From a virus (lineage: Duplodnaviria; Heunggongvirae; Uroviricota; Caudoviricetes), in IMG/VR virus record IMGVR_UViG_2609459826_000005, positions 1 to 15,276 of that record: a stretch of 15,276 nucleotides of DNA. One strand, written 5' to 3'. Numbering within the stretch: the stretch's first letter is position 1; every line of letters starts with the position of its first letter. Below, piece after piece: positions 1-14,701 of the stretch. Made by a program: the position numbers and the translations under genes. The notes below the pieces were generated by a model. That model made no database searches, was not told where the DNA came from, and saw only the letters and a program-made list of their open reading frames with translations.

Positions 1-357
1 CAGGTTAAACAGCAGTTGGCTGCGCTTGGCTATACCACCGTTCCTGACTTCATGATCGACGCCTACCTGTGCAAGCTGGCGAAGATAGAACCCTGCCTGA
101 TTGCCGCCGGTTACGACGATTGCGATCTGATGCTCATCCAAGTGTACGCAGTCACCTTGATGGCTCTGACGGCGTACACGCAGCGGATTAAGTCGCAGGG
201 TGCTCCGTCCGGTGCGTCCCGGTCGTTCGACTACAGCGACAGCGTGCTCAACATGCGTGACGCTCTGCTGGCGCTGGATACCTCCGGTTGCACGTCAGAG
301 CTGCCCATCGATGTCGGGCAGAAGGTTGGGATGTTCCTCGTTGTTGGGGGCTGCTGA
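1..357 (+). CDS. phage head-tail connector/adaptor protein (gp6-like), 5' partial
   Basis: Reading frame is open from base 1 (no stop upstream of the listed ORF at 16), ends TGA 355-357 overlapping the next start. Position immediately upstream of head-closure, neck and major tail genes. Family assignment is by synteny and general resemblance, not a recognised motif. Confidence 0.45.
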   Translation, partial: QVKQQLAALGYTTVPDFMIDAYLCKLAKIEPCLIAAGYDDCDLMLIQVYAVTLMALTAYTQRIKSQGAPSGASRSFDYSDSVLNMRDALLALDTSGCTSELPIDVGQKVGMFLVVGGC

Positions 358-530
358 TGACCTGGACACCCGTAAGCGTCCGGCTGCCGCGCTCATTCAC
401 TCGCATCTGGGTGCTGACCGACACCGGTCGGGAGACTACCGGCTACGTCAAATCGGATGGGGAGTGGTTCATTAACTGTGATCGCATCCGGGCTACTGGC
501 GCGGTGGTGCTGCGCTGGAGGGAGGACTGA
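357..530 (+). CDS. small hypothetical phage protein (57 aa), translationally coupled
   Basis: ATG at 357 overlaps upstream stop (TGATG) and its own stop overlaps the next ATG at 530 (TGATG). Coupling on both sides argues for a real small gene; function unknown. Confidence 0.4.
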   Translation: MTWTPVSVRLPRSFTRIWVLTDTGRETTGYVKSDGEWFINCDRIRATGAVVLRWRED

Positions 531-886
531 TGTCGGCAACCGCGAATTGGAGTTACACCGCCAAAGCCACCATCTGGCGCAAGGGCGCAGGCGGCAGGGA
601 TGAGAACGGCGACCCCATAAACGGCTATGACGCGCCGGTAGTCATCATGGTCGATTATGAGGGCGGGCTGTCAAAGCGCATCGGCAACCTGGGCACTGAA
701 ATCGTAGTGAAAAATACCGTCTGGACGGAATACGCGCTGGCCGACGCCGGTGATTACCTGCTGATTGGTGAATCTACCGATGCCGATCCGGTTGCTGCTG
801 GCGCTGACGAGGTGCGGCAGGTTATCCGCTACGCCGATACGTTCGAGCGAGTGGCGGATGATTTCGCCATCCTGACGGGAGTGTAG
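530..886 (+). CDS. head-tail joining / head closure protein
   Basis: 118 aa ORF in the canonical position between connector and HK97 gp10-like gene; start coupled to upstream stop. Assignment by synteny and size. Confidence 0.5.
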   Translation: MSATANWSYTAKATIWRKGAGGRDENGDPINGYDAPVVIMVDYEGGLSKRIGNLGTEIVVKNTVWTEYALADAGDYLLIGESTDADPVAAGADEVRQVIRYADTFERVADDFAILTGV

Positions 887-888
887 CT

Positions 889-1257
889 ATGGGCATCAAA
901 GTTAAGGGCATCAGTCAGGCGCGTAAAAACCTCAATGCCCTAGTCGGCGACATCCAGGGCCGTAAGACCATCAGGGCCATGCAGTCGGCGCTGATTATCG
1001 GGGGCTCGCAGGCTGCGCTCTATACGCCGATCGACACGTCCACGCTGCTGAATAGTCAGTTTCGCGACATAACCGTGAACGGCAATCGCGTAACGGGCCG
1101 TGTGGGATACTCTGCTAATTACGCGGTGTATGTTCACGACCCGAACGTACCTCAGACCTTCCGACGAGCTACAGCACGGAAAGAATTCCTCACGAAAGGC
1201 TTTGAGGATACGCGAAGACAAATCGATGCGGTGATCGCCAAGGAGATGTCGCTATGA
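889..1257 (+). CDS. HK97 gp10-like tail completion (neck) protein
   Basis: 122 aa, GGGAG 8 nt upstream of ATG 889; size and position typical of the HK97 gp10 family; stop overlaps next start (ATGA at 1254-1257). Confidence 0.55.
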   Translation: MGIKVKGISQARKNLNALVGDIQGRKTIRAMQSALIIGGSQAALYTPIDTSTLLNSQFRDITVNGNRVTGRVGYSANYAVYVHDPNVPQTFRRATARKEFLTKGFEDTRRQIDAVIAKEMSL

Positions 1258-1637
1258 CGCCCATGATGCATGAGCGGGTGCGCAACATGTTCGGTGATGC
1301 TGGCCTCACGGCCGGGTTCACGGTGCAGAAGTTGATGTATGACGACCCGGAGGATCTGACGCAGGCCGTGATGGTGTTCAGGCCAAACGGTGGTACCGAC
1401 GTACGAAACGATCTTGGTTCTGAGCATTACGTCCTGGTCGATGTCATTGCTGCGAAGGACAGGCGCGGCGACGCCGCTAATGCTGTTCAGCGTATTGTCG
1501 ATTATGTTCAGGCAAACCCTATGGCTGATGAGTGCGTCGGCTATATCCAGAATATGGGCGCAATCCCCGCCCCGGTGTTAACAGAAGAGGGGCGAATGAC
1601 CTTCCGGCTCCAGTTCGCCTGCACCTACGGCGAATAG
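1254..1637 (+). CDS. tail terminator / tail tube-head joining protein (gpU analogue)
   Basis: 127 aa ORF directly upstream of the major tail protein gene, translationally coupled to the preceding gene; followed by an intrinsic terminator. Confidence 0.5.
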   Translation: MTPMMHERVRNMFGDAGLTAGFTVQKLMYDDPEDLTQAVMVFRPNGGTDVRNDLGSEHYVLVDVIAAKDRRGDAANAVQRIVDYVQANPMADECVGYIQNMGAIPAPVLTEEGRMTFRLQFACTYGE

Positions 1638-1653
1638 CCAACCCAACCAAATA

Positions 1654-1680
1654 GACCCGCTACGGCGGGGTTTTTTTTTT
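1654..1680 (+). terminator. rho-independent terminator (CCCGC-TACG-GCGGG stem-loop + T10)
   Basis: Perfect 5 bp GC stem 1656-1660/1665-1669 with tetraloop, followed by ten T at 1671-1680, 17 nt after the stop at 1637. Confidence 0.7.
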
Positions 1681-1700
1681 AGTCAAAGAGGAAGTTTCAC

Positions 1701-2444
1701 ATGGCTAATTGCCCTAGCTCTAACGAGCGCCTATTCGGTGGCGCGGTGGTGCTGGAAGTCGCCGACGGCTGCCCGGATGTCAAACCACTTGAATCAGAGT
1801 GGAAGGCGCTGGCGGCCGGTACGTCCAAAGGCTTCGACTTCAACCCGAACTCGGTAACCTCAGATGCTGATGACGGCGGCGGCTATGTCGAAACCATCAT
1901 CACCAACAGTGACTTCACCCTGAGCTTTGAAGGTGAGGTCCGCAAGAAGGATAAACTGGATCAGTACGGCGTCGGCAAGTTCATCAAGTATTTCGCTGAC
2001 GAGCTGAAAGCCAAACGCCAGCCCGGAATCTGGGTGCGAATGGACTACGGCCCGGTTGAATTCATCGGCTACATGAACATCAACGCGCTGAGTTCTGACG
2101 GCGGCACCAACGATATCGTCACGTTCTCTACCGAGTTCAAAGTGGGCGATGCCAGCACCATCGAAGTTAACGAAGTGACGGCAGTGGCGGTGACCGGCGT
2201 AACGGTGACCCCAGCTACCAGCACTGGCGCGGCAGGCGGTACCAGCACCTTTACGGTGAATATCGCCCCGACCGGCGCAACCAACAAAGACTTCACCGTA
2301 GCATCAACCGATCCAACCAAAGCCACTGCTACCGCCTCCGGTACCACCGTGACGGTGAACCGCGTCGCCGCCGGCAGCGCGCAGATCGTCATTAACACCG
2401 AAGACGGTAATTTTGTTGCAACCCATACCGTTACCGTCAGCTAA
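1701..2444 (+). CDS. major tail protein with C-terminal Ig-like (Big_2-type) domain
   Basis: 247 aa; AAAGAGGAAG RBS at 1685-1694. The C-terminal ~90 aa is Thr/Val/Ala-rich with alternating beta-strand pattern (VTGVTVTPATSTGAAGGTSTFTVNIAPTGATNKDFTVASTDPTKATATASGTTVTVNRVAAGSAQIVINT), typical of Ig-like domains appended to siphovirus major tail proteins (cf. lambda gpV C-terminus). Confidence 0.8.
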   Translation: MANCPSSNERLFGGAVVLEVADGCPDVKPLESEWKALAAGTSKGFDFNPNSVTSDADDGGGYVETIITNSDFTLSFEGEVRKKDKLDQYGVGKFIKYFADELKAKRQPGIWVRMDYGPVEFIGYMNINALSSDGGTNDIVTFSTEFKVGDASTIEVNEVTAVAVTGVTVTPATSTGAAGGTSTFTVNIAPTGATNKDFTVASTDPTKATATASGTTVTVNRVAAGSAQIVINTEDGNFVATHTVTVS

Positions 2445-2504
2445 CGGCCATTCCAAAGGGTGGCCGCGGCTGCCCTTGATAATGACCGTTAACCTGGGTG
2501 AAAC

Positions 2505-3179
2505 ATGACAGTAGTAGCCATGAAAGAAATTGGCGAGATCGCCATTAGTGACAGCCGGGAAGGTGGTAAGGACTACTTACTGCGGCCTTCCTTCTCAGCG
2601 ATGATGAAGGTTGGTGAACCGGATGAGATCGTGAAGATGTACGCACTAATTCACGGTAGCGAGGTGCAGCAATTGATAGCCTCTTGTACTGCTGGCTTCG
2701 ACTCAATTCCTGAATGGATGGCTCCATCCTTCAATGTTGCAGCTGACAATCTGCTATTCACGTCAATGCTGGTATTGCAGGCCTGCTGTGATGATGATCT
2801 CGATGAGATAATTGGCGAGTGGGCTGATGAAGGCGGCAGAATCTCCTATCAGCCCGGCATGATGGCAAAAGATTTAATCATCATTTTCGCCCGCGAGCTG
2901 ATGCAGCACGGCATCGTAGGTAAAGCCAGTGTGCGACGCCTGCAGCGGCATGAGTCAGGCGAAACGACGAACGAGTTTAAGGCCTTCGACTACATCAGCG
3001 CGGCGCGTAGCCACTTCGGCATGAGCCGGGAAGAGGCTGCGGCGCTGACCATGACCGAGTTTCAGCTGATGCTGGCGCAGAAATACCCTGATCAGAAGGG
3101 TTTCACGCGGGATGAGTACGACGCGGTTGCGGATGACTTCCTGGCGAAACAGGCTGCGAGAAGGGCTAAGCAGAAGTAG
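2505..3179 (+). CDS. putative tail assembly chaperone (position-based)
   Basis: 224 aa acidic protein in the slot between major tail and tape measure genes, where gpG/GT-type chaperones are encoded. No slippery frameshift site recognised; the call is synteny-based only. Confidence 0.4.
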   Translation: MTVVAMKEIGEIAISDSREGGKDYLLRPSFSAMMKVGEPDEIVKMYALIHGSEVQQLIASCTAGFDSIPEWMAPSFNVAADNLLFTSMLVLQACCDDDLDEIIGEWADEGGRISYQPGMMAKDLIIIFARELMQHGIVGKASVRRLQRHESGETTNEFKAFDYISAARSHFGMSREEAAALTMTEFQLMLAQKYPDQKGFTRDEYDAVADDFLAKQAARRAKQK

Positions 3180-3195
3180 CCCACCCAAATAATCA

Positions 3196-3223
3196 AGCCT
3201 CGGCATTGTCCGGGGCTTTTTTG
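3196..3223 (+). terminator. rho-independent terminator after the chaperone gene
   Basis: AGCCTCGG / CCGGGGCT 8 bp stem (one G-U wobble) with CATTGT loop followed by TTTTTTGT, 17 nt after stop at 3179. Confidence 0.6.
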
Positions 3224-3261
3224 TACCCGCAGTAAATCAACCGCGCTTCACACGCGCATTG

Positions 3262-3267
3262 TATAAT
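3262..3267 (+). promoter_or_regulatory. consensus -10 hexamer TATAAT upstream of the KilA-N gene (candidate moron promoter)
   Basis: Exact TATAAT at 3262-3267 immediately preceded by TG, located between a terminator and the KilA-N start. No good -35 found at 17 bp spacing. Confidence 0.35.
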
Positions 3268-3341
3268 CCTAGAGCCTACAGTAAGCGAGCCTGAGAGTTG
3301 CCGTTATAGGTGGCGACCTCTCTAGGAGGCGGCTTCTCTGT

Positions 3342-3905
3342 GTGACAGGCTCTGCTTTCTATAGGCAAATCGCAATGAAATATCCAACCGTATCAGTAAG
3401 CGGCGTTTCCGTTCGCGTTGATGACGAAGGGCGCTATAACCTTAATGATCTTCATGCAGCCGCAGTGGCAAACGGAGAGGCAACAGAACAGCAGCGCCCA
3501 AGTCAGTTTTTGCGTAGTGCTCAAGTTAAGCGCTTCATAAAAGCACTAAAAGCCAAAGTGCAAAAAAGCACTCTGGAACAAATTCAACCACTTAATGTTA
3601 TTAAAGGTGGGGATGAACCAGGCGTTTGGGGTGTTGAACTGTTGGCGATCCGTTATGCCGCATGGATTAAGCCGGAATTTGAGATTGAAGTATATGAGGT
3701 GTTCCGAACGGTGGTTCGCCTCGGCATTAGTGCCATGTCTCGCCTGAACAAAATCGACCACATCATCAACACCGAATCGAAAGAGATCAGCAAGTGCGCC
3801 AGCCAGATGGCCCGGTGGGGTGTCGGTGGTCGTAAGCAGCTATTGCACGCAGCAAGAGATCGCGTCGCCGATGAAGTTCAGATGTACCTGCCAGGCATCG
3901 CGTGA
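3342..3905 (+). CDS. KilA-N domain protein
   Basis: GTG start 3342 with AGGAGG at 3325-3330 (alternative ATG at 3375). N-terminal region contains the hallmark KilA-N pattern (VSVRVDDEGRYNLNDLHAAA...RPSQFLR...IKGG...GVWGVELLAIRYAAWIKPEFEIEV). Confidence 0.8.
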   Translation: MTGSAFYRQIAMKYPTVSVSGVSVRVDDEGRYNLNDLHAAAVANGEATEQQRPSQFLRSAQVKRFIKALKAKVQKSTLEQIQPLNVIKGGDEPGVWGVELLAIRYAAWIKPEFEIEVYEVFRTVVRLGISAMSRLNKIDHIINTESKEISKCASQMARWGVGGRKQLLHAARDRVADEVQMYLPGIA

Positions 3906-3912
3906 AGGTGGC

Positions 3913-3935
3913 AAGGCCCACTCAGGTGGGCTTTA
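3913..3935 (+). terminator. hairpin terminator after KilA-N gene (weak T tract)
   Basis: AGGCCCAC-TCAG-GTGGGCTT hairpin (GCCCAC/GTGGGC perfect stem) followed by TTTAG; 8 nt after stop at 3905. Confidence 0.45.
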
Positions 3936-3960
3936 GATCTCTTATCTCGGGGAGAGGGCG

Positions 3961-4155
3961 GTGAAACCTAAGCAAACATTAACCATTAACAATTTGATAC
4001 CATTCCCAAGCGAAGCGCCTAGAGAAGAGACCATAGAGTGTAATGATGTTTTTCTTGATAATTCAATGCTAGAGGAAAAAATTTCTACTCGAATAGGTTT
4101 TAGTAGATTGATTTTTGTTAATGAAATCAACTCGATCAATTCCATCTCGGAGTGA
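3961..4155 (+). CDS. small hypothetical protein (64 aa) in AT-rich moron segment
   Basis: GTG start with GGGGAGAGGG just upstream; ends 37 nt before the peptidase gene. A 73 aa ORF on the opposite strand (3942-4163) covers the same DNA, so strand and reality are uncertain. Confidence 0.3.
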   Translation: MKPKQTLTINNLIPFPSEAPREETIECNDVFLDNSMLEEKISTRIGFSRLIFVNEINSINSISE

Positions 4156-4192
4156 ATTATCATATGCGCATACCTTTCAATAGGATGCGAAA

Positions 4193-4771
4193 ATGATTAA
4201 CGAATATGATTTCGTGACAGCGGCAGGTCATATAGCTAAACATGAAGCCGGTCACTGGCTTGCGGCGTTTAAATTAGGCTGGAACCCAAGAGGTATAGGC
4301 TTGAGAGTGCCGCCTCATGCTAAAGATCACATGGGTTATTCAGAAACAAGTCACAAAGTCGATTTAAGCAGCATTGAGGATGTCCGGGATTACGCAAGAG
4401 GCAGGGTAAAAATTCTCTACAGTGGCGTATATGCAGAGCACTTTGACGGAAAAGACTTTGATCACGAATCCATAATGCGTGATATGAAGCGTGGCGGCGG
4501 TGCTTATTCTGATTTCTGGAAAGCTGAAGAAATCTACTTCTTTTACTACAACTGCCTCGACACAAAGGGAGAGTGGGATGAAGAGTTTCAGCCTGTTATT
4601 TGCGACGTTCAGCTCATGATCGAAATGCATTATGACTTCATCACCTTGGTAGCCAAATTTGTTATGGCGAGGGCAAATTTTGTCGGTCAACGCATAGAGA
4701 TTTCATCCACCGACCTGATCAGGCTGTTCGAAAATAGCGCCATTAATCTACCGGATCACGACCCTGCCTAA
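4193..4771 (+). CDS. standalone FtsH-like (peptidase M41-type) zinc metallopeptidase domain protein
   Basis: 192 aa; HEAGH at residues 17-21 (AGHIAKHEAGHWLAAFKLGWNPRGIGLRV), followed by a PRG motif and LYSG...AE / GGGAYSD segments. This parallels the FtsH protease domain (HEAGHA...IIPRGRALG...LYGGRLAEE...GASND) as recalled from E. coli FtsH. No AAA+ ATPase or transmembrane part. AGGA 7 nt upstream of ATG. Confidence 0.65.
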   Translation: MINEYDFVTAAGHIAKHEAGHWLAAFKLGWNPRGIGLRVPPHAKDHMGYSETSHKVDLSSIEDVRDYARGRVKILYSGVYAEHFDGKDFDHESIMRDMKRGGGAYSDFWKAEEIYFFYYNCLDTKGEWDEEFQPVICDVQLMIEMHYDFITLVAKFVMARANFVGQRIEISSTDLIRLFENSAINLPDHDPA

Positions 4772-4883
4772 CTGCGGGTTTTTCCGGCGCTAGCCTCTTG
4801 AGATCAATAAATCAGCGTTTGCCGTTGCGCCTGTGCTATTCCTGGGTAGGATGTTTCCACTTTTACCAATGGGGAATAGGGAT

Positions 4884-5270
4884 ATGAAGCGTTTACTGAT
4901 CATGGCTATTGCTGGGCTATCACTAACCGGCTGCGGCAAACCTGCACCGACAAGAGATGAGGCCTTTCAAATGGCTAAGCAGGAAATGTCGATGGCTCTT
5001 TGTGGCGATAGGAGTGCAAGCTGTTTTATTGCTGAAGGAGGAAGCTCTAAAGTATCAGAGAAGAAAAATGACAATACCTATAACGCCTCAGCTACATTTA
5101 ACAGCCTAAAAGGGAAGGGCAAGGATTTGGAATATAGCGGCGGGGGCGTTTTTTTCGAAATAGATGACGAAACAAGGGCTGTATATGTCAAATCCATCTC
5201 AGCATGGTCTGAGGATGGAAAAAAGAGCATTGAGCTTTGTGGTTCGAACTATAAATTCTGTACTAAATGA
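4884..5270 (+). CDS. small lipoprotein (128 aa), candidate superinfection-exclusion moron
   Basis: Likely start ATG 4884 (in-frame upstream GTG/ATG at 4833/4851/4869 lack a signal peptide). N-terminus MKRLLIMAIAGLSLTGC has a basic n-region, hydrophobic core and lipobox L-T-G-C. Followed by a strong terminator. Confidence 0.7.
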   Translation: MKRLLIMAIAGLSLTGCGKPAPTRDEAFQMAKQEMSMALCGDRSASCFIAEGGSSKVSEKKNDNTYNASATFNSLKGKGKDLEYSGGGVFFEIDDETRAVYVKSISAWSEDGKKSIELCGSNYKFCTK

Positions 5271-5286
5271 AGCCCTAATAAACAGC

Positions 5287-5309
5287 AACCCGCCGAGGCG
5301 GGTTTTTTT
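5287..5309 (+). terminator. rho-independent terminator (CCCGC-CGAG-GCGGG + T7) abutting the tape measure gene
   Basis: 5 bp GC stem 5289-5293/5298-5302, tetraloop, seven T at 5303-5309. Confidence 0.7.
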
Positions 5310-5324
5310 ATGCCCGGAGAGAAC

Positions 5325-7727
5325 ATGGCCAGCGAGGAGCAGGTAGGTAATATTGTCTATCAGGTGCAGATGGATGTTGCCAATCTTATTGAGGCGCAGC
5401 GTAAAGTAAACGAACGCCTTGAGAAGATGAATAGTGGAGTATCAAAAGCTGCCAGCAAGTTTGATGAGCTTCAGACCAGTATAAGCAGAGTAGCTGGCGC
5501 GATCGCTGCTTCAATTGTCGTTGAATGGGGGAAGGCATTTCTTGTAGCCGCTGACAATATGAGCCAACTTAACGCTCGAATTGAAAGGCTAACTGGTAGT
5601 GCTTCTGTCGCATCTCAGACCATGCAAAGTCTGATGAATATAAGCTCAACAACAGGAGGATCTCTCCAGGATACAGCCAAGCTGTGGGAAACGTTAAGCA
5701 CTGCGTTGCGGAGCACTGGTGCCACTAATGGCCAAATATTGCAGCTTACCGATACCCTTCAAAAAATTGGTCGAATTGGAGGCACATCTGCCGAGGAAAT
5801 GGCTAATGCGCTGCGCCAATTCGGACAGTCTATTTCATCCGGCGTTGTTAGAGCAGAAGAATTTAACTCTATTCTTGAGCAAATGCCTGAGTTGGCAAGG
5901 CAGATGGCGGCAGGGCTTGGAATTGGTATTGGTGAATTGCGTCAGTTGATGCTGGATGGGAAACTTTCTGCTCAAGATGCACTCAATGCAATTCAGAAGC
6001 AAACCAGCATCGTGAATGCAGAGTTCGCAAAATTGCCCCGCACCTTATCTCAGGCCAATGCTGCTCTTACCAATTCGTTTCTGTCAATGGTTGACTCAAT
6101 TAACCAGACTACAGGCGCGAGCAGAACCATGGTGGCTGTAATTGACTCCATCACCACAGCCATAGACAGGCTGACTGGGAAAACAGCTTCAGCAGCAGCT
6201 CAAATTTCCGATCTCAATAGCACAGCAGAGATGTTCGAGCGAAGGGCGAGGACATGGTCTTGGCTGGGCCTGGATGGTTGGGAGGCTCAAAGCAAGGCGC
6301 TTGCAGGGCTAAGCAACAAAGCTGCAGCTCTCGTTGGGGATATTTCTGCCGTGACCCAAGCCTCTCAAGAGGCCTCTAACACAAAGCCAATAAACATTAA
6401 AACGACCGGAGACGATGCGGCTACATCGAAGCTGATAAAAAACTCAGAGCGCCGCTTAGCGCTCGCCAAGCTGGAAGGTGAAGCCAGAGCCAGACTGCAG
6501 GCCCAATATGATGCAGCAGACGCTGGCATCACCGATCAGAAACGCATCAAAGCTCTTCAGGATGAATACGCAGAAACCTATCGGGTTACTGAGGCGCGGA
6601 AAGAGAGCAACAAAGAGGGCAAGACCTCCGCCTCGCAGGCTGAATCCATTGCTCAGAAACTGGCGAGCCTCAAACAGCAATCCGAACTCGCTGCAGATTC
6701 GACCAGTGAGTTGAGTCGAGAGCAGGCCATGCTAAGGGCCGAGCAATCCCTCGGCAGCGCCGCCACCCAGTCCCAGATTAAAGAGGCAAGGGAATACGCA
6801 GCCAGGACGTGGGACGTTGCTAATGCCCTGAAAATGCGTCAGCAGGCGGAGCAGGCCTCCCGGTTTATAAATCAGGAAGTGTCAGCTGCGAAGGTTCAAC
6901 GCGATCCTTACACAGGTGAAGCGCAGGACCCAGCCGCGCAGGTCAACGAGGAAGAGCAGCGTAAACTCGAGGCCCTGGCTAAATACCAGGAACTGGGCGT
7001 AATCAACGCGCAGCAGTTCGAAGACGGAAAGACGGCCATCGCAAGGCAGGCATCGAACGATCGCATCAGTATTGCCCAGCAGGAGGCTAAGCGTCAGGTT
7101 GACGTGATGAACATGCTGCTTGGCGGGATCGGTGATGGTTTCTCAGGCCTGGCTGAAATCGTGTCTAAAAGCGCTGGCGAAAGCAATGCCGCTTACAAGA
7201 CACTGTTCGCTATCAGTAAAGCCTTTGCGGTTGCTCAGTCCACTCTGAACCTTCAGCTTGCACTCTCAAACGCCATGGCCTCGGGTCCATTCCCCTGGAA
7301 CATGGCAGCAATGGCGCAGGTTGCTGCAGCTGGCGGCCAGGTGATCTCATCTATCGGCGCAATGTCATATGGTGGCGGGCGCGAACACGGCGGCCCGGTA
7401 TCTGCCAGCTCCATGTACCGTGTGGGCGAGGGCGGTAAACCTGAGATTTTCAAAGCCAGCAATGGCAGCCAGTACATGATCCCCGGCGATAACGGTCGCG
7501 TCATCAGTAACCGGGATATTGGCGGGGGTGGCGGGGCGTTCAATTACAGCCCGGTCATTCAGGTCAACGGTGATCCGACAGAGCAGACGCTTGCCATGCT
7601 TGAAGCGGCGGTTAAGCGCGGTGCGCAGCAAGGCTATGCCATGGCCGTCAGCGATGTCGCCAGCGGCAAAGGTAAGCTTTCCAACGCGCTGACCAACAAC
7701 TTCAACACCAGTCAACGCCTCACATAA
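5325..7727 (+). CDS. tail tape measure protein
   Basis: Long ORF (800 aa from ATG 5325; in-frame ATG also at 5310 but it abuts the terminator T-run, whereas CCCGGAG at 5313-5319 is a well-spaced RBS for 5325). Ala/Gln/Glu-rich coiled-coil-like middle, Gly-rich C-terminus, and position between chaperone and minor tail genes. Confidence 0.9.
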   Translation: MASEEQVGNIVYQVQMDVANLIEAQRKVNERLEKMNSGVSKAASKFDELQTSISRVAGAIAASIVVEWGKAFLVAADNMSQLNARIERLTGSASVASQTMQSLMNISSTTGGSLQDTAKLWETLSTALRSTGATNGQILQLTDTLQKIGRIGGTSAEEMANALRQFGQSISSGVVRAEEFNSILEQMPELARQMAAGLGIGIGELRQLMLDGKLSAQDALNAIQKQTSIVNAEFAKLPRTLSQANAALTNSFLSMVDSINQTTGASRTMVAVIDSITTAIDRLTGKTASAAAQISDLNSTAEMFERRARTWSWLGLDGWEAQSKALAGLSNKAAALVGDISAVTQASQEASNTKPINIKTTGDDAATSKLIKNSERRLALAKLEGEARARLQAQYDAADAGITDQKRIKALQDEYAETYRVTEARKESNKEGKTSASQAESIAQKLASLKQQSELAADSTSELSREQAMLRAEQSLGSAATQSQIKEAREYAARTWDVANALKMRQQAEQASRFINQEVSAAKVQRDPYTGEAQDPAAQVNEEEQRKLEALAKYQELGVINAQQFEDGKTAIARQASNDRISIAQQEAKRQVDVMNMLLGGIGDGFSGLAEIVSKSAGESNAAYKTLFAISKAFAVAQSTLNLQLALSNAMASGPFPWNMAAMAQVAAAGGQVISSIGAMSYGGGREHGGPVSASSMYRVGEGGKPEIFKASNGSQYMIPGDNGRVISNRDIGGGGGAFNYSPVIQVNGDPTEQTLAMLEAAVKRGAQQGYAMAVSDVASGKGKLSNALTNNFNTSQRLT

Positions 7728-7736
7728 GGAGTTCCC

Positions 7737-8207
7737 ATGGGGATCAGCAGCACCATTGATTTCCCGCACCAGTACCTACCAATGCCCCAGCGTTCCGGGC
7801 ATGGATTCACTCCCGTAAGCCCCCTCCAGCGTTCCATCATGACATCCGGCCGCACGCGCCAGCGTCGCAAATACACCTCGGTTCCGACTGAGGCGGGGGT
7901 TTCGTGGGTGTTTAATGATGCACAGGCGCAGCTGTTTGAGGTGTGGTTCAGGGATGTGATCACTGATGGCGCAGCGTGGTTCAACATGCGCATGCGCACG
8001 CCAATGGGCGTTGGTGACTACGTCTGCCGGTTCAAGGATATCTACGACGGGCCGGTGCTGTTCGGGTTAGGGTTCTGGAAATTCACGGCAACTCTGGAAC
8101 TGTGGGAACGTCCTATTCTGCCGCCTGGCTGGGGTAATTTCCCTGAGTTCATCGTGGGGCAGAGCATTATCGATTACGCGCTCAACAAGGAGTGGCCTGA
8201 AGCATGA
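7737..8207 (+). CDS. minor tail protein (distal tail/tip assembly)
   Basis: 156 aa; AAGGAG at 7725-7730; first gene after tape measure; stop overlaps next start. Confidence 0.6.
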   Translation: MGISSTIDFPHQYLPMPQRSGHGFTPVSPLQRSIMTSGRTRQRRKYTSVPTEAGVSWVFNDAQAQLFEVWFRDVITDGAAWFNMRMRTPMGVGDYVCRFKDIYDGPVLFGLGFWKFTATLELWERPILPPGWGNFPEFIVGQSIIDYALNKEWPEA

Positions 8208-8692
8208 CCAGTCCAACCCTGAACAGGCTTTACGCCAGCGGCGGCAGCGAGGCGCTACTGAATACGTTGCAGATTACCGTCGGTGGGCAGGATTACTGGC
8301 TGGTCGAGAACTTCGAAGATATCACCGCTGTTACAGAGGCGGGGGCGACAGTGACATTCCAGGCAGCTGCAATGGCCGTCGCGCTGCCAGCCAGGAACAA
8401 AGACGGTACGCAGGATCTGCAGTTCGCCATCAGCAACATTGACGGCATCGTTTCCACTGCGATACGCAACGCCCTGGCTAACCTGAACAACGGCGCGCTG
8501 GTAATGCGGCAGTACATATCGACCGACCTTAGCTACCCGGCGGCACCACCTATCGTTCTGCAGATTAAGGACGGGTACTGGAAGGCCACAGAGGTGCAAA
8601 TTACTGCCGGATTCCTGAATATCCTGAAAACCGCGTGGCCGCGATACCGATACACGCTTCCTGTGTTCCCGGGACTCCGCTACCTACAGTAG
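8204..8692 (+). CDS. minor tail protein
   Basis: 162 aa; ATG overlaps upstream stop (ATGA); AAGGAG 9 nt upstream; syntenic with lambda L-position genes though not recognisably lambda L. Confidence 0.6.
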   Translation: MTSPTLNRLYASGGSEALLNTLQITVGGQDYWLVENFEDITAVTEAGATVTFQAAAMAVALPARNKDGTQDLQFAISNIDGIVSTAIRNALANLNNGALVMRQYISTDLSYPAAPPIVLQIKDGYWKATEVQITAGFLNILKTAWPRYRYTLPVFPGLRYLQ

Positions 8693-8701
8693 GAAATCAC
8701 C

Positions 8702-9082
8702 ATGTTCAATCCAGATAAATACCGTTCTGTCGAGTGGCAGAAGGGCGGGCGCGCTTACCCCGCGCTTGACTGCTTTGGCATCGTCAACGAAATCAGGCGC
8801 GATCTGGGTCTGGATCCGTGGCCGGATTTCGCCGGAGTCACGAAGGATGATAACGGCCTAGATCGGGAAGCGCGCGGGCTGATTGCTGGCCTGACTCGAT
8901 GTGAACCGACCCCGGGCGCAGGTATCGCCTGTTATTCCGGCTCTGTTGTTACACACGTTGCCATCGTTGTCGAGATTGACGGCCAACTGCGCGCTGCGGA
9001 GTGCAATCCCCGCACTAACGTAACCTTTCTGCCGCTGGCGCGGTTTGCGCGCCGCTTTGTTCGCGTGGAGTATTACCAGTGA
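8702..9082 (+). CDS. NlpC/P60-family tail protein (gpK-like)
   Basis: 126 aa with putative catalytic Cys in ALDCFGIV and downstream His in VVTHVAIVVE, the Cys-His arrangement of NlpC/P60 peptidases; position equivalent to lambda K. Confidence 0.65.
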   Translation: MFNPDKYRSVEWQKGGRAYPALDCFGIVNEIRRDLGLDPWPDFAGVTKDDNGLDREARGLIAGLTRCEPTPGAGIACYSGSVVTHVAIVVEIDGQLRAAECNPRTNVTFLPLARFARRFVRVEYYQ

Positions 9083-12000
9083 CGATCCGTATCTATCCCT
9101 CCCGGTTGCCGGGCGAACCGTTGGAAACGCATCAACATGAAACGATGACCCTTAGCGCCTGGTTTGCGCAGAACGTGAAGGACTGGACGCCGGATCAGCA
9201 GCATCCGGTTGCGGTTGAAATCGACGGTGTCCCCGTCCCGCCGGCAGAGTGGACACTGCGCGTTATCAAGCGAGAAACAGACGTCAGGTTGTATCCGGTG
9301 CCATACGGTACCGGCGCAGAAATCGCTATCTGGGTTGCCGTCAGCGTAGCTGTCGCCTCTGCTGCGTACAGCATCTACATGATGAGTACAATGTCACAGG
9401 CGGGTGGCGGCGGTGCCCAGGCGGCCAGCGGAGACCAGATTGACCTCAACCCGGCCAAAGCGAACGCTGCGAAACTTGGTGATCCCATCCGGGAAATCTT
9501 CGGCAAATATCGGGTCTGGCCTGATTACGTTGTGCAGCCGGTAAGCCGGTTCGTCAACGAGACCAGCATGGAAACCAGCATGTTCCTGTGCGTGGGCGTC
9601 GGTGACATGGTGATTAACCAGTCCGATATCCGGATTGGCAATACGCCGATCTCCGCTTTCGGTACCGACGTGCGTTACACCATCTACCCACCTGGCACTA
9701 ATGTATCCGGCGACACGCGTACCGAAAACTGGTTCAACTCACCAGAGGTCGGGAATACCGGTTCCGGTACCGCCGGGCTGGACCTTGGCTCAAGCGGTCC
9801 GGAGACGGTCAGTATTATCGCTGACGCTCTGGTAGTGTCCGGAAACTCCATCACGCTCGTTGACGTATCGGCGTCAGGCGGCGATGAGGAGATCCCGCCG
9901 TCGTGGACTGTAGGAACGGTGATCACCGTGCTGGCGCCAAACTCTTATACGGTGGTGTCATCCGGCGGTTACAGCGTCATTTATGGCGGGATAGAGGAAC
10001 TTGCACCTTATGTCGGCATGCCGGTGACGCTGAACTATAACGGCAACGACTACGACCTGGTGATCGCCAGCTATGCCCCGGGCGTTCCGGCGGTACCCGG
10101 GGTTGGCGGCAGTGCCGCGACCTTAACCGCCAGCGCCGCGCCGACGACTTATGATTTCAGTACCGCACCTGTGACGTTCAGCATCAGCTGGCAGGGTACG
10201 ACCTACCCGGTCTCGCTGGTTACCAATTACGTCACCATGTCGGGTCTGGTTTCCTCGATCACCTCGCAGCTCTCAGGCTCCGGTCTGATTGCCAGAGATA
10301 ACAGTGGGCGTCTCGAAATCGGTGAGGCCAGCAGCCCGTTCGCTGGCGGTTCCATAACCAACAGCCCTTTACCCGCTGCTGTGTTCGGCGATGCGCCAGT
10401 CAATAAGGCGGGCGTGAAATCAACGGGCGGCACGGCGGAAGTCAGGGCGCACATTACCCTGGCTTACAACAGCGCCACCGGCACGCCGTTTACCGGGTTA
10501 CCGGAAGGCATTCAGCGGTTCTCGCTGGGGTTGGCTGGCAATCAGTTCCGGATCACCGATGTGGACAGCCAGACGGTCACGATTGAGCGGTTAACTGTGA
10601 CAACAGGCTCTGGCGGTGAAACCATCACGACGCCGGATCCATCGTGGCCTGGCTTCACTGAGCGCATGCTGCTGGATGCGACTGTAACGGGTGTCAGTGA
10701 CGATTATGAGTGGGTCGGCCCGTTCCTGGCCTGCCCGGACGGGGAAACGCTGGACGCATTCGAGGTGAACATCAACTTCCAGAGCGGCCTGGTGCGTTAT
10801 ACCGACCAGGGGAATAAACGCTCCATGCCGGTACGCCTGGTGATCCAGTATCGCAAGGTCGGCACCACCGCCTGGCAGCAGCAGTCTCCGTTCTATTCAC
10901 GCAGCACTGAAAACCAGATCGGGTTTACGCATCGCTACAGTGTGTCGCCGGGCCAATATGAGATCCGGATGCGCCGCACTGAACCGGTTAAGGGGGGCAG
11001 TACCCGCGACCAGGTATTCTGGCAGGCGCTGCGCTCACGACTCAGCAAGCGCCCCACGAAGTACAATGGTGTCACCACCATGGCGCTGACCGTGCGCACA
11101 GGGAATCGCCTGGCGGCCATGTCCGATCGCCGGATAAGCGTCACGCCAACCCGGATTTACAGTGGCGGCAGAACGGCGCGGAGCATTAGCGGGGCGCTTT
11201 ACCACGTCCTAGGGTCGCTGGGGTTCACGGCCAGTCAGATAGATACGGCGGCAATTGACGCGCTGGAACAAACCTACTGGACGCCACGCGGTGAGAAGTT
11301 CGACTGGGCGAGCGGGGAGAGCAAGTCAGCGCTTGAGGTATTGCAGAAAATCACCAACGCAGGGATGGGGTATTTTCTGCTGTCTGATGGGCTGGCGTCT
11401 GCCGGCAGGGAAGGCATTAAACCCTGGGTAGGCATGATCACCCCTCAGGAAACCACCGAGGAGCTGCAGACCGCGTTTAAAGCCCCGTCACAGGACGATT
11501 ACGACGGTGTGGACGTGACGTATATCAACGGCACCACCTGGGCAGAGGAGACCGTGCAGTGTCGCCTGCCTGGCAATCCTACGCCGTTGAAAATCGAGAG
11601 CTATACGCTGGATGGTGTTCTGGATGAGGACCGGGCCTACCGCATCGGCATGCGCCGGTTGCTGGGCTACCAGCTGCAGCGCCTGCAGCACACCACCTAC
11701 ACCGAGATGGATGCGCTCTGCTATGAGTTCATGGATCGCATAGTGCTGGCCGATGACATCCCGGGCAGCCAGACTCTTAGTTGCCTGATTACCGATATGA
11801 CGTATGACAGCAGCAAAATTACCATGACGCTAAGTGAGCCGCCGGACTGGTCGTTCCAGAACCCGCGCGTGATTATCCGCCATCAGGATGGCAGGGCATC
11901 AGCCATGGTGGTGCCGACACGCATTGACGACTTCACCATCTCGGTGCCGTACAGCGCCGCGCTGGAGCCCGAACTGTGGGCAATGAACGACGCGTACATT

Positions 12001-12165
12001 GAGCCGCCGCGACTGCTGTTCTGCTCGTCTGTGCGGGTGCCGTATGACGCCCTGGTAGGCGAAATATCACCGGGAAACGACGGTATCAGTCAGGTAACAG
12101 CAATTCAGTATCACCCCGGAAAATATGCCTACGATGACGCCACTTACCCCGGCGACGTTACTTAA
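9079..12165 (+). CDS. central tail fibre / tail tip protein with gpI-like N-terminal domain and gpJ-like core
   Basis: 1028 aa; GTG start overlaps upstream stop (GTGA). N-terminal ~200 aa resembles lambda gpI organisation (short soluble domain, hydrophobic stretch IAIWVAVSVAVASAAYSIYMM, then a PAKANAAKLG...IFGKYRV segment). Further in, QYEIRMRRTEPVKGGSTRDQVFWQALRS matches the lambda J NIRMRR...TLW motif as recalled. Confidence 0.75.
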   Translation: MTIRIYPSRLPGEPLETHQHETMTLSAWFAQNVKDWTPDQQHPVAVEIDGVPVPPAEWTLRVIKRETDVRLYPVPYGTGAEIAIWVAVSVAVASAAYSIYMMSTMSQAGGGGAQAASGDQIDLNPAKANAAKLGDPIREIFGKYRVWPDYVVQPVSRFVNETSMETSMFLCVGVGDMVINQSDIRIGNTPISAFGTDVRYTIYPPGTNVSGDTRTENWFNSPEVGNTGSGTAGLDLGSSGPETVSIIADALVVSGNSITLVDVSASGGDEEIPPSWTVGTVITVLAPNSYTVVSSGGYSVIYGGIEELAPYVGMPVTLNYNGNDYDLVIASYAPGVPAVPGVGGSAATLTASAAPTTYDFSTAPVTFSISWQGTTYPVSLVTNYVTMSGLVSSITSQLSGSGLIARDNSGRLEIGEASSPFAGGSITNSPLPAAVFGDAPVNKAGVKSTGGTAEVRAHITLAYNSATGTPFTGLPEGIQRFSLGLAGNQFRITDVDSQTVTIERLTVTTGSGGETITTPDPSWPGFTERMLLDATVTGVSDDYEWVGPFLACPDGETLDAFEVNINFQSGLVRYTDQGNKRSMPVRLVIQYRKVGTTAWQQQSPFYSRSTENQIGFTHRYSVSPGQYEIRMRRTEPVKGGSTRDQVFWQALRSRLSKRPTKYNGVTTMALTVRTGNRLAAMSDRRISVTPTRIYSGGRTARSISGALYHVLGSLGFTASQIDTAAIDALEQTYWTPRGEKFDWASGESKSALEVLQKITNAGMGYFLLSDGLASAGREGIKPWVGMITPQETTEELQTAFKAPSQDDYDGVDVTYINGTTWAEETVQCRLPGNPTPLKIESYTLDGVLDEDRAYRIGMRRLLGYQLQRLQHTTYTEMDALCYEFMDRIVLADDIPGSQTLSCLITDMTYDSSKITMTLSEPPDWSFQNPRVIIRHQDGRASAMVVPTRIDDFTISVPYSAALEPELWAMNDAYIEPPRLLFCSSVRVPYDALVGEISPGNDGISQVTAIQYHPGKYAYDDATYPGDVT

Positions 12166-12184
12166 CAGCATTTAAAAATTACCT

Positions 12185-12206
12185 GACCCGCTTCGGCGGG
12201 TTTTTT
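12185..12206 (+). terminator. rho-independent terminator (CCCGC-TTCG-GCGGG + T6) abutting the fibre gene
   Basis: 5 bp GC stem 12187-12191/12196-12200, tetraloop, six T at 12201-12206. Confidence 0.7.
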
Positions 12207-12221
12207 ATGCCCGGAGCGAGC

Positions 12222-13889
12222 ATGACCACATACCGCACGAATAATCCATTTGGGTCAATGGATCCGAAAGACCTTTTCGATAACTCCCAGAATCTTGACT
12301 ATGCCCTAAACGATATAACAAAATCCTTGTGGACAGACCGCTTAGGAAGAGTAAGGAAAAGTTATTGGGGAATGGAGCAGGCTTTTTCTGCTCAACTTAT
12401 CAGCCAGCAGCAAAGATTTAATTATTTCATTCAGAATTCAGGGTATAAAGTAATTGGTGAATATACCCAAGGTCCTCTGACTGTTACTGATTATAATCAA
12501 CTGATTCGCTATCAGAGTGAATTTTATAAATTAAATTCTTCTACTTCCATTCCATTTACCACTACGGGCAATGACTCCACGTCATGGTCAAACGATTCTT
12601 CACATTTTGTCAGTGTAGGGGATGCGGCCATTCGCCAAGAATTATCTGGTGCTGGCGGCTCAGGTTTGATTGGAGATTTACTCAAGCCTATCACGTGGGA
12701 TGGGTTTTCTGGAGGAGCGGCCTGGGACGGTGTAACCAATGATAATATTCCCTACCAGGCGGCAGCTCAATATGGTCGAAAATTTTTAATGCCATATGGC
12801 GTTGGAAATATAACAGAGTATTCAGTAGGTCTTTTTGCGCCGAATTTCTCTGTTCTTGGTGAGGCAGAGCAATTAGGCTCATTGCAATATCCTGTTGATG
12901 ATTTCCGTCCATCAAGGACGGATACAAAATACTCAAAGTATCACGAAACGGATCCAGCATCTAATCGATGGGATTCCTGTTCTATACATACAATTGTTAA
13001 ATGTCCTCAGGACGGTGCTAATCCAAAAGGAAATGCGGCAGCTGTAACTGGATATGCCAGGGCTATCAATAGCGAGGGTGGTGATCATGTTGGCGTACAT
13101 GGTAGAGCAGAAGGTGATACCAGTTACGACTTCGGTACTGGGATGGGGTTGTGGGGTGGATGGCTGTCAGCCGTTTACAGACCTAATACAGGCTCAGCTG
13201 GGAAGCCAATAAAGTCTATTATTGGTTGTGAGATTGACGTGCAAAATGATGGGCCACACGCACAAAACCCCAATCCGGATGGTGTTGGTGAGCTGCGTGG
13301 TCTCGCGGTAGGGAATACTGGCACCGGCCATCTTAATCAAGGCGTTGATGTATTCGCTAACAATAGCGGTGCGCGTGGAAGGTGGTGGATGGGCGTTCAC
13401 GTACGTGCTAATTCCATTGTAGGAAGACATCTGGTATCAACAGAGGGGGAAGTTGGTAATGCAATGGTGATTGCTGGAGCGGCATCGTCAGGGACGCGTT
13501 ACGGCGGATTAAAATTTAGTAAATATCCCTACACAGCGGTAGGACAAGGAGGTCATCTTTCTTATGGAATTGATTTCAGGGAGGCAACAATTCGCTTACA
13601 AAACGCGATTGTAATGGGGCCTCAGCACCGGATTACATGGGAGCCTGACACTGCAAAGGGTGTTGCGGTAGAGACAGAGGGAGGGGATGTAATTACTTTC
13701 CGGGGATATAACATAGCCATAAATAACTCCAAAGTTTTGGGGACTAGGCAAACTGGTATTTTTAATATGTCGGGGACGGCAGATGGAACCTCATACAATA
13801 CAGAAACCGTCACACTTGTAAATCTTGCCAGATACCTCAAGAAAGTAACTGATGCATTAATATTTCATGGCCTTATTGGCCCAACTTGA
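12222..13889 (+). CDS. tail fibre / tailspike protein (putative receptor-binding protein, possible depolymerase)
   Basis: 555 aa from ATG 12222 (in-frame ATG at 12207 abuts the terminator; CCCGGAG RBS serves 12222). Last large gene of the tail cluster; visibly lower GC than neighbours; Gly/Asn/Thr-rich C-terminal half suggestive of a beta-rich binding or enzymatic domain. Confidence 0.65.
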   Translation: MTTYRTNNPFGSMDPKDLFDNSQNLDYALNDITKSLWTDRLGRVRKSYWGMEQAFSAQLISQQQRFNYFIQNSGYKVIGEYTQGPLTVTDYNQLIRYQSEFYKLNSSTSIPFTTTGNDSTSWSNDSSHFVSVGDAAIRQELSGAGGSGLIGDLLKPITWDGFSGGAAWDGVTNDNIPYQAAAQYGRKFLMPYGVGNITEYSVGLFAPNFSVLGEAEQLGSLQYPVDDFRPSRTDTKYSKYHETDPASNRWDSCSIHTIVKCPQDGANPKGNAAAVTGYARAINSEGGDHVGVHGRAEGDTSYDFGTGMGLWGGWLSAVYRPNTGSAGKPIKSIIGCEIDVQNDGPHAQNPNPDGVGELRGLAVGNTGTGHLNQGVDVFANNSGARGRWWMGVHVRANSIVGRHLVSTEGEVGNAMVIAGAASSGTRYGGLKFSKYPYTAVGQGGHLSYGIDFREATIRLQNAIVMGPQHRITWEPDTAKGVAVETEGGDVITFRGYNIAINNSKVLGTRQTGIFNMSGTADGTSYNTETVTLVNLARYLKKVTDALIFHGLIGPT

Positions 13890-13915
13890 TTTAATAAATA
13901 TTCTGAGGATAATAA

Positions 13916-14083
13916 ATGGACAGCCAAGTAGTACAAAATATCATGCAATTTATGCTGCGTGTTAATCTTTCCGGACAGGAGGTCCCGGCGTTTAATGTTG
14001 CAATGAATGCATTGCAGGAAGAGTTGATCAAAAGTGAAAAAAACCATGAAAGGGAGGTTGAATAATGGCTTTGAAAACAAATG
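13916..14083 (+). CDS. small hypothetical protein (55 aa)
   Basis: ATG 13916 with GAGGA 6 nt upstream, in an AT-rich stretch right after the fibre gene; overlaps the next ORF by 19 nt. Below the 60 aa cut-off of the supplied ORF track; found by manual translation. Confidence 0.3.
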
Positions 14084-14310: not shown

Positions 14311-14342
14311 GCTCTCGCGCAGATCTCTCTCCGATTGCACAT

Positions 14343-14609: not shown

Positions 14610-14665
14610 CTTCTGTAATCGGCATTGATAGGCGTCGCCTCATTGATCTGCACCCCTTTCAAAAC

Positions 14666-14685: not shown

Positions 14686-14701
14686 TAAAGGAGTGCAGAT
14701 C

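Follow-up and report, generated by a model that had tools for sequence, protein, structure and literature searches.

A KilA-N gene between phage tail genes belongs to a promiscuous accessory cassette with a conserved RNA leader

How can a phage accommodate a gene for a putatively toxic DNA-binding protein among the genes for its tail? This question is raised by a 15,276-nt stretch of DNA from a tailed phage (Caudoviricetes; positions 1 to 15,276 of IMG/VR record IMGVR_UViG_2609459826_000005), which was analyzed as a whole and is referred to as the window. In it, an open reading frame (ORF) for a protein with a KilA-N domain lies between the genes for a DUF6246 protein and the tape measure protein. 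A preliminary description, made from the sequence without database searches, had depicted this gene as an autonomous unit between two terminators, equipped with its own -10 element and with a 7-bp inverted repeat that overlaps the ribosome-binding site (RBS). We find that window positions 3195–3934 are one copy of a promiscuous moron cassette of temperate enterobacterial phages. The cassette comprises, in this order, a 5′ intrinsic terminator, a GCGC hairpin, a leader of ~100 nt, the ORF and a weak 3′ hairpin (Table 1). The leader harbors two RNA helices that are supported by covariation, one of which buries the Shine-Dalgarno (SD) sequence of the gene, and it recurs upstream of unrelated genes including rha of phages P22 and phi80. 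Translational control by this leader is the mechanism that we favor, with the reservations given below.

Table 1. Coordinates of the cassette, its leader and the neighboring features in the window
Feature	Position	Strand	Remarks
Major tail protein with Big_2 domain	1701–2444		
DUF6246 protein	2505–3179	+	Tail-chaperone position; left flank of the cassette, outside of it; Pfam E 2.7e-66
5′ intrinsic terminator	3195–3224	+	9-bp stem AAGCCUCGG/CCGGGGCUU plus T6 run; called by the terminator scan (3195–3218)
Small hairpin/palindrome GCGC-N7-GCGC	3243–3257	+	Conserved; present in nearly all leaders
Exact TATAAT	3262–3267	+	Unverified candidate -10 element
H1, 5′ arm, CCTAGAG	3268–3274	+	Directly next to the long hairpin's base; G3274 common to both
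Long leader hairpin	3274–3366	+	Minimum free energy (MFE) -42.6 kcal/mol; covariance, independent folding
Pairing GCCUA/UAGGC	3274–78/3362–66		SD sequence buried here
Pairing AG/CU	3280–81/3359–60		
Pairing AAGC/GCUU	3283–86/3354–57		
Pairing GAGCCUG/CAGGCUC	3287–93/3346–52		
Pairing AGAG/CUCU	3294–97/3336–39		
Pairing GCCGUU/GGCGGC	3300–05/3328–33		
H1, 3′ arm, CTCTAGG	3320–3326	+	Within the long hairpin's apical loop region
GUGUGA bulge	3340–45		Conserved
SD-like AGG	3363–3365	+	Conserved, 9 nt 5′ of ATG; AAGG/AGG in all leaders
Coding sequence, KilA-N + ORF11CD3-like	3375–3905	+	176 aa
KilA-N domain	3399–3713	+	Residues 9–113; Pfam PF04383, E 7.5e-18
C-terminal helical domain	3741–3902	+	Residues 123–176; divergent ORF11CD3, from HkbK BLASTP and hhalign
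3′ hairpin	3913–3934	+	9 bp, AAGGCCCAC/GUGGGCUUU; weak U tail; 3′ boundary in some copies
ORF in cargo gap	3961–4155	+	64 aa
Protein in cargo gap	4193–4771	+	192 aa; PHROG 36675 match (unknown function)
Intrinsic terminator	4763–4778		Called by the scan
Lipoprotein-like ORF in cargo gap	4884–5270	+	Listed from GTG 4833; PHROG 20460 match; MKRLLIMAIAGLSLTGC lipobox
Intrinsic terminator	5287–5304		Called by the scan
Tape measure protein	5310–7727	+	Right flank of the cargo gap; Pfam TMP_3, E 8.6e-55

The KilA-N gene is cargo of a transferable cassette

Homologous loci were found by protein and distant-mode DNA searches, and the counts of conservation given here refer to 79 distinct homologous loci with their upstream regions and to 49 distinct leaders. 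The KilA-N protein recurs in more than 100 loci with an amino acid identity of 82–99%, and the genes that flank it are unrelated or distantly related. Where a DUF6246 gene precedes it, DUF6246 is 29–67% identical between the loci while the KilA-N protein is 86–99% identical. The gap between the DUF6246 and tape-measure genes is filled differently in four related E. coli prophages: it contains the KilA-N gene and two other genes in strain GN25, the KilA-N gene and a TagO-like gene in MB20, a lipoprotein-like gene only in E3 and four other genes in LR-28, the latter two strains lacking KilA-N. Salmonella phage 29485 possesses the same layout as the window, and a megablast search of positions 2400–5400 against the phage collection returned no match.

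The cassette also occurs outside tail operons, since in P22-like phages such as SE1 it is located behind Rz, that is at the lysis-to-head junction of podoviruses. Further genes preceding it encode an HK97-gp10-like protein, a tail tube protein, a tail terminator, DUF2514 and DUF3383 proteins, a lambda-K-like NlpC/JAB protein and tape measure proteins of two families, which amounts to at least ten late genes in all. All marker genes detected by a two-strand search run in the same direction as the cassette. The DNA homology between the different contexts starts at 3194–3213, which is inside the terminator, or at ~3240 and ends at 3898–3905 or at 3934. Hence, the ends of the cassette are ragged, and no sign of site-specific mobility is seen.

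The autonomy attributed to the gene in the preliminary description is thus confirmed in the sense of transferability, as related prophages have or lack the unit at the same junction and it follows many different late genes. Its location within a structural operon had been regarded as unusual there. This does not hold, as placement in a late operon is the rule for the cassette and the junction between tail chaperone and tape measure is a classic moron site: in HK97, gp15, annotated as 'moron product', follows the gene for the G/GT frameshift tail protein and precedes that for the tape measure. Nor is the gene product a conserved structural or assembly factor, the finding that the preliminary description had named as speaking against its view. 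The gene is absent from E3 and LR-28 despite a shared tail module, its presence varies among near-identical tail modules, and it is present in P22-like podoviruses.

The upstream terminator travels with the cassette

The 5′ terminator of the window is strong, with a stem at 3195–3218 and a T6 run at 3217–3222, a folding energy of -16.2 kcal/mol, a z-score of -3.25 and none of 200 shuffled sequences folding as well. A hairpin followed by a T-run is found in 73 of the 79 upstream regions, located 20–60 nt before GCGC-N7-GCGC and built from diverse stem sequences. Copies from P22-like and Klebsiella phages retain it, and in the phi80 record this terminator is annotated as lying between Rz and rha. 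As it travels with the cassette, it is not the accidental end of the transcription unit of the preceding gene. The small hairpin downstream of it is paired in 93% of the alignment cells, with GTGC/GCAC variants. At the other end of the cassette, the 3′ hairpin contains U residues within its stem, has a poor tail and a z-score of -0.8, and was not called by the terminator scan. Hence, of the two terminators initially assumed to enclose the gene, only the upstream one was corroborated.

Apart from this, the region 3149–3219 (+) gave a weak isrJ-like match of 25 bits (gathering score 37), which covers mainly the terminator and the preceding CCAAAUAAUCAAGCC. Among the weak Rfam matches located at or just past the terminator (3140–3288), it alone reached E < 0.1. 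In Gifsy-1, isrJ is a 3′-end small RNA (sRNA) of the antirepressor-like anrP gene. The match may reflect a terminator module shared among phage accessory cassettes.

The start codon and two conserved RNA helices define the leader

All 79 distinct homologous loci begin with ATG-xxx-TAY-CC at the position of ATG 3375, and for the homologue of E. coli GN25 the equivalent start is annotated in RefSeq. The alternative of a start at GTG 3342 served by AGGAGG (3324–3329) was discarded because neither element is conserved; AGGAGG is confined to the clade of the window, and other clades carry GGGGCGG, GTGGGCC or further sequences at its place.

When diverse leaders were folded each on its own, the same long irregular hairpin was obtained in ~24 of 26 cases, with a mean stability of about -41 kcal/mol across leaders. 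A covariance model built from 30 leaders, termed R1, scores 57–112 bits 5′ of the KilA-N homologue at every searched locus holding that sequence. In the R1 alignment 82.8% of the cells are paired, compared to 38–58% after sliding the partner. Compensatory changes are seen at 21 of 27 pairs, and 186 cells hold double changes versus 69 ± 8 in shuffled controls. As G-U pairs are frequent on the sense strand, the leader is more likely an RNA than a DNA element.

The inverted repeat of the preliminary description forms a second helix, H1. It is exact and can be extended to 8 bp (TCCTAGAG/CTCTAGGA). Each of the 49 distinct leaders has a helix of 6–9 bp joining the corresponding two segments, realized overall by 27 different arm-sequence pairs such as CCAAGA/TCTTGG, CACAGAA/TTCTGTG, CAAGAGC/GCTCTTG and CGTCGGA/TTCGACG. 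In a plain MAFFT alignment, 7 of 7 pairs are compensatory and 78% of the cells are paired as opposed to 31–57% when slid. Both the long hairpin and H1 are accordingly supported as RNA helices by covariation in the aligned sequences. The repeat as such is therefore real, but its proposed overlap with the RBS is not: the AGGAGG in question is clade-specific, the true start is ATG 3375, and the true SD sequence is contained in the longer, different helix. What remains of the suggestion that the repeat modulates translation is that a leader controlling translation appears most plausible.

H1 is incompatible with a closed lower stem of the long hairpin in one molecule and would therefore be either a pseudoknot formed together with the upper stem, an alternative state reached kinetically or with the help of a factor, or a contact made in trans.

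The leader itself (3225–3374) has no match in Rfam 15 at E ≤ 10, and in 11 loci no Rfam family matched the leader at gathering score. The models for isrK, C4 and c4-a1b1 (RF01394, RF01695, RF03163) gave no hit at E ≤ 10 in 3140–3400 or at E ≤ 1 in 2400–5500; Gifsy-1, used as positive control for the isrK/C4 models, was detected. The leader represents an RNA family with good structural support that lacks a match in Rfam and, as a family, appears undescribed. Separately, the apical region of the leader (3297–3309, GTTGCCGTTATAG) shows an exact complementarity of 13 nt to positions 10035–10047 in a tail-tip gene. With ~0.07 such matches expected by chance, we considered this site, the only candidate for a trans partner inside the window, and rejected it as probably fortuitous.

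The same leader precedes rha and other genes

Searches with R1 found the leader upstream of several further types of genes. It scores 94.7 bits upstream of hkbK of HK620, a gene located after Rz whose product combines a KilA-N and an ORF11CD3 domain (Pfam), and 57.8 bits upstream of P22 rha, whose product, if read from ATG 39644, consists of Phage_pRha and ORF11CD3 (Pfam). It furthermore precedes a 198-aa ORF in a Symbiopectobacterium prophage (L023), which lacks a Pfam match and which we read as Rha-like from its sequence, genes for 270-aa proteins with a Phage_Tail_Tip-like segment in two other genomes (L012 and L058) and a gene with HNH_3 and AP2 domains, flanked by the Q region and the holin gene. 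In the latter copy, terminator, small hairpin and leader are all present. Already by blastn, the leader of the window is ~81% identical to that of phi80 rha and 80–88% identical to leaders of HK106, HK639 and other phages.

For P22 (L117, NC_002371; 39523–39649), the annotated rha start GTG 39575 falls within the leader, and the start defined by the leader is ATG 39644. For phi80 (L119, NC_021190; 2501–2642), the annotated start at 43739 is the GTG of the conserved bulge and the leader-defined start is ATG 43775. Both leader-defined starts possess an AAGG SD sequence. The rha annotations are probably 12–23 codons too long, and the start codons in the P22 and phi80 reference records probably need correction.

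A small-RNA-seq study of P22 infection published in 2026 reported P22F, an RNA of 89 nt with no known function (PMC13397905). Its sequence runs from AAUGGGCCUUUGAGG to GAAGAAGGCA, and its 3′ end lies 6 nt before the rha ATG (PMC13397905). P22F is exactly the P22 leader hairpin; the hairpin therefore accumulates in vivo in P22. This unexplained RNA is so far the sole experimental trace of the leader.

The Symbiopectobacterium prophage L023 deserves a separate remark, as it contains a bona fide isrK/C4 locus (2202–2390, 4896–5615 and 5885–6543 being the intervals noted for L023). After its lysis genes, two leader cassettes follow in tandem, the first with the 198-aa ORF read as Rha-like and the second with KilA-N, and the H1 arms of both differ.

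The KilA-N protein shares its architecture with HkbK

The assignment of the KilA-N domain is well founded: the protein scores 64.8 bits with PF04383 at a gathering score of 23.8, all tested relatives match as well, and the motifs cited in the preliminary description (EGRYNLNDLH...RPSQFLR) are present. A further match is to PHROG 129, 'transcriptional regulator', and residues 16–110 of the protein are 34% identical to P1 KilA. With respect to the C-terminal domain, BLASTP aligns the protein end to end with HkbK of HK620 (E 8e-17, 26% identity), and the HkbK segment called ORF11CD3 by Pfam falls within this alignment. Comparison of residues 123–176 with ORF11CD3 segments by hhalign gave an E-value of 6.9e-5 at a probability of just 63%, and a motif W-G-x4-K-x2-LL...Q..(I/L)PG is common to the C-terminus and ORF11CD3 domains. 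The C-terminus is hence ORF11CD3-like according to HkbK and hhalign, but is missed by the hidden Markov model (HMM) of that family.

Pfam detects KilA-N alone in the protein, a Phage_pRha domain being absent. PADLOC 2.0, which covers BstA and other catalogued defence proteins, as well as NCBIfam and PDB sequence searches returned no match. An AlphaFold2 model was poor (pLDDT 53, shallow alignment) and revealed nothing beyond a helical C-terminus. Because of the homology of its C-terminus to HkbK and ORF11CD3, the protein would possess the architecture of Rha with KilA-N in place of the pRha N-terminal domain. Judged from these alignments, its architecture is the same as that of HkbK, and that of P22 and phi80 Rha with the N-terminal DNA-binding domain swapped.

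By analogy, the product would be a non-structural and probably toxic DNA-binding regulator of the Rha or antirepressor-like class. P22 rha has been described as a late-operon gene that is regulated by IHF and harmful to lytic growth when IHF is absent (PMC4936722). The phi80 record annotates rha with 'DNA synthesis inhibition in IHF- hosts'. A conserved IHF site was not found for the cassette, as a relaxed form of WATCAANNNNTTR matched in just 2 of the 79 upstream regions.

Proposed late read-through and translational gating

How, then, might such a gene be expressed within a structural operon? Three intrinsic terminators (3195, 4763 and 5287) lie within the tail operon, and terminator-resistant late transcription is therefore implied. 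Likewise, the cargo genes each seem to be insulated separately, which implies that late transcription is antiterminated. We consider it rather probable that the KilA-N gene is reached by late read-through transcription and that its leader gates the translation of a toxic regulator. In this model, the cassette would be transcribed as part of the late operon by a terminator-resistant polymerase, and the 5′ terminator would block stray transcription at other times. In the ground state, the long hairpin would occlude the SD sequence through its basal pairing and keep translation low. H1, reaching from the 5′ strand of the hairpin base to the apical loop, would act as a second conserved helix that modulates the opening of the hairpin. 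In this model, the read-through, the repression of translation, the function of the protein and a switch made by H1 are inferences.

Several points weigh against this model. Energetically, the lower stem contributes about -15 kcal/mol and H1 about -8 kcal/mol. If H1 is treated as a nested alternative that frees the SD sequence, its formation costs ~13 kcal/mol and the SD sequence stays partly paired. As a co-transcriptional intermediate, H1 is part of the MFE structure of prefixes of 43% of the leaders only, not including that of the window. We discarded both variants, and the energy models as applied leave the role of H1 unexplained. With respect to the statistics, the alignment in which the hairpin pairs were counted had been fitted to R1, and the sequences are related, so that the shuffle controls overstate the significance. 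On the protein level, the ORF11CD3 HMM (PF10549) gave no match at E ≤ 5 for the C-terminus of the window protein and eight relatives, and the proposed function follows by analogy with Rha. Finally, in the clade of the window TATAAT could serve as a genuine weak promoter; it occurs in tail-module copies only and never in those behind Rz.

This last point leads to an alternative that we regard as unlikely, namely that the gene is a moron with its own promoter. A sigma-70 promoter with TATAAT at 3262–67 would be active in the lysogen, and the repeat would mask AGGAGG for a start at GTG 3342. The hexamer is exact, the 5′ terminator would insulate such a promoter, and the gp15 gene at this junction in HK97 carries a moron annotation. 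TATAAT is kept in 14 of the 49 distinct leaders, mostly of one leader clade and without exception in tail-module contexts. Two of the 14 are class-b leaders, L012 and L045, whose nearest relatives have TCTAAC. On the other hand, TATAAT occurs three times in the window, with 4.7 ± 2.2 expected and thus at chance frequency, and the P22, phi80 and HK620 versions lack it, as do most others. A usable -35 element or a TGn extension was not found for it, and the promoter scan made no call. TTCACA (3247–52) resembles a -35 element but is just 9 bp away from the -10. A transcript starting ~7 nt past the -10 would be devoid of the 5′ arm of H1, and the start at GTG with AGGAGG is unconserved as opposed to the universal ATG 3375. 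With the scan, the chance test and conservation all negative or neutral, a sigma-70 promoter at this site is not supported. The exact TATAAT of the preliminary description thus exists, but the promoter role ascribed to it is doubtful. A LexA box in CTGTGTGACAG was discarded by eye, as its spacing is wrong (CTGT-N3-ACAG and not CTGT-N8-ACAG).

Somewhat less probable still is that the leader hairpin serves mainly as an element of RNA processing or stability, either as a stable decay intermediate or as a site for RNase E or RNase III at which the mRNA of the cassette is uncoupled from the late transcript, with the pairing of the SD sequence being incidental. P22F would fit this, being a discrete 89-nt species with one end at the base of the hairpin and the other 6 nt short of the ATG, and so would the high stability of the hairpin and the AU-rich single-stranded linkers on both of its sides. 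Against this explanation, the helix between anti-SD and SD covaries in step with the SD context (CG to UA, UA to AU or CG). AGG is always inside the stem, 7–9 nt from the ATG, and an element of stability alone could do without H1.

The processed hairpin might instead act in trans like IsrK or C4, the H1 arm in its loop pairing with the single-stranded 5′ arm of full-length transcripts and thereby switching their translation or decay, which we judge to be improbable. A closed hairpin keeps the two H1 segments from meeting in cis and leaves both single-stranded, and the processed species keeps the loop and lacks the 5′ arm. An IsrK-like role was also suggested by the authors of the P22F study (PMC13397905), and IsrK of Gifsy-1 provides a precedent (PMC4825925). 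The H1 arms differ between the copies in four of four two-copy genomes (L023, L012, L058 and L100), but with 27 arm variants in the set such differences are expected by chance. Moreover, the complementarity stops short of the anti-SD beyond H1.

It is very improbable that the inverted repeats act on the level of DNA, as a repressor operator or recombination site, or that the protein is a conserved tail-assembly factor: the GCGC-N7-GCGC palindrome could bind a protein and the gene lies among tail genes, but frequent G-U pairs are confined to the sense strand, the cassette boundaries are ragged and not precise, and the gene is polymorphic in presence among near-identical tail modules and found at podovirus lysis-to-head junctions as well.

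Returning to translational gating, a more far-reaching interpretation, which we advance as a tentative possibility, is that the leader (~100–135 nt, ~3240–3374) constitutes an undescribed family of phage riboregulators. Its members would be two-state or pseudoknotted, with the long hairpin burying the SD sequence and H1 competing with it or docking to its loop, and would form a module with the 5′ terminator. In the late phase they would gate how accessory genes for toxic DNA-binding proteins (KilA-N/ORF11CD3, Rha, HNH-AP2 and others) are translated in enterobacterial temperate phages, among them P22, phi80 and HK620, possibly acting also in trans via a P22F-type hairpin.

Comparison to known systems

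The window cassette finds its closest counterparts in the cassettes that carry rha in phi80 and P22, which share with it the order of terminator, GCGC hairpin, leader and ORF as well as the ORF11CD3-type C-terminus of the product, and which likewise consist of a non-essential, co-oriented accessory gene in a late operon. They differ in the N-terminal domain, which is Phage_pRha in Rha and KilA-N in the window protein, and in the insertion site, which is the lysis-head junction after Rz for rha and the tail operon for the window. An IHF-related phenotype is described for Rha; no conserved IHF consensus was found in the cassette. HkbK of HK620 resembles the window protein in its two-domain architecture and has the same leader, but only HkbK is matched by the ORF11CD3 HMM, the proteins are no more than 26% identical, and the insertion context is another one. 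HK97 gp15, a membrane superinfection-exclusion protein, represents accessory cargo at the same siphophage junction and is followed by a terminator. In contrast to the window protein it is an unrelated protein of 62 aa, and its annotation shows no terminator upstream.

For leaders that are kinetically gated, as those of the MS2 maturation gene and the hok mRNA, the SD sequence is paired to a distant upstream complement and a second helix competes with this pairing. The window leader deviates from them in that folding of prefixes yields an H1 intermediate inconsistently.

The isrK-orf45-anrP-isrJ locus of Gifsy-1 and c4-icd-ant of P1/P7 resemble the window in that a domain-shuffled antirepressor-like gene for a DNA-binding protein is placed behind a terminator. 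In the Gifsy-1 leader, a translationally inactive fold sequesters the RBS (PMC4825925). However, isrK, C4 and isrJ score 69–100 bits in Gifsy-1, whereas the window contains only the isrJ-like terminator of 25 bits, and unlike Gifsy-1 and P1 it has no conserved sRNA body upstream of the terminator and no conserved upstream ORF. AnrP of Gifsy-1 is an ORF6N protein. As AnrP is unrelated to the window protein and the isrK and C4 models miss the window, we rejected homology of the two systems and regard the similarity as an analogy only. BstA (PMC8585504) and P1 KilA are, like the window protein, prophage accessory proteins with an N-terminal KilA-N or KilA-N-like domain, but differ from it in their C-terminal domains and lengths.

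Taken by itself, the KilA-N gene is ordinary, being common, annotated before as 'KilA-N domain-containing protein' and located at a well-known moron site. Of wider interest is the module of terminator and leader, which stands ahead of at least five unrelated types of ORFs in the late operons of P22, phi80, HK620 and hundreds of prophages. If the leader is a translational gate, this would explain how phages can harbor toxic regulators of the Rha and KilA-N type in structural operons without harm, and a testable mechanism would be at hand for the control of rha expression, for which we found no explanation in the literature searched. On the practical side, the ragged yet recurrent boundaries make the cassette a clean case study for the spread of morons between unrelated phage modules.

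Neighboring genes in the window

The window has the layout of a siphophage-type late region, starting with the connector genes of the head-tail junction and ending with distal tail genes. The cargo gap between the DUF6246 and tape-measure genes contains the KilA-N ORF and three more ORFs. The G+C content is 0.55–0.61 in the tail genes, 0.48–0.53 in the KilA-N gene and 0.39–0.46 in the rest of the gap. In this phage group, DUF6246 is always located directly 5′ of the cargo gap, at a place where a G/GT-type chaperone is expected.

Immediately 3′ of the cassette, in a stretch with a G+C content of 0.39, small ORFs on both strands overlap (3961–4155 on the plus strand and 3942–4163 on the minus strand), neither of which matched a family in the library searches. 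At the place corresponding to the former, the annotation of E. coli LR-28 lists a hypothetical protein of 64 aa on the plus strand. The 192-aa protein downstream of them carries an HEAGH motif (HExxH, FtsH-like) of metalloproteases close to its N-terminus; searches of Pfam, NCBIfam and PADLOC with it gave no match. It is 99% identical in two loci (L036/L037), in which KilA-N is also 99% and the flanking tail genes are ~50% identical, and it is 90% identical in E. coli LR-28, a strain without KilA-N.

The hairpin at 5287–5304, 6 nt 5′ of the tape-measure start, was called as terminator-like on both strands. The lipoprotein-like ORF is located directly 5′ of the tape-measure gene, as are its homologues in E. 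coli E3 and GN25, and its product is a candidate superinfection-exclusion lipoprotein.

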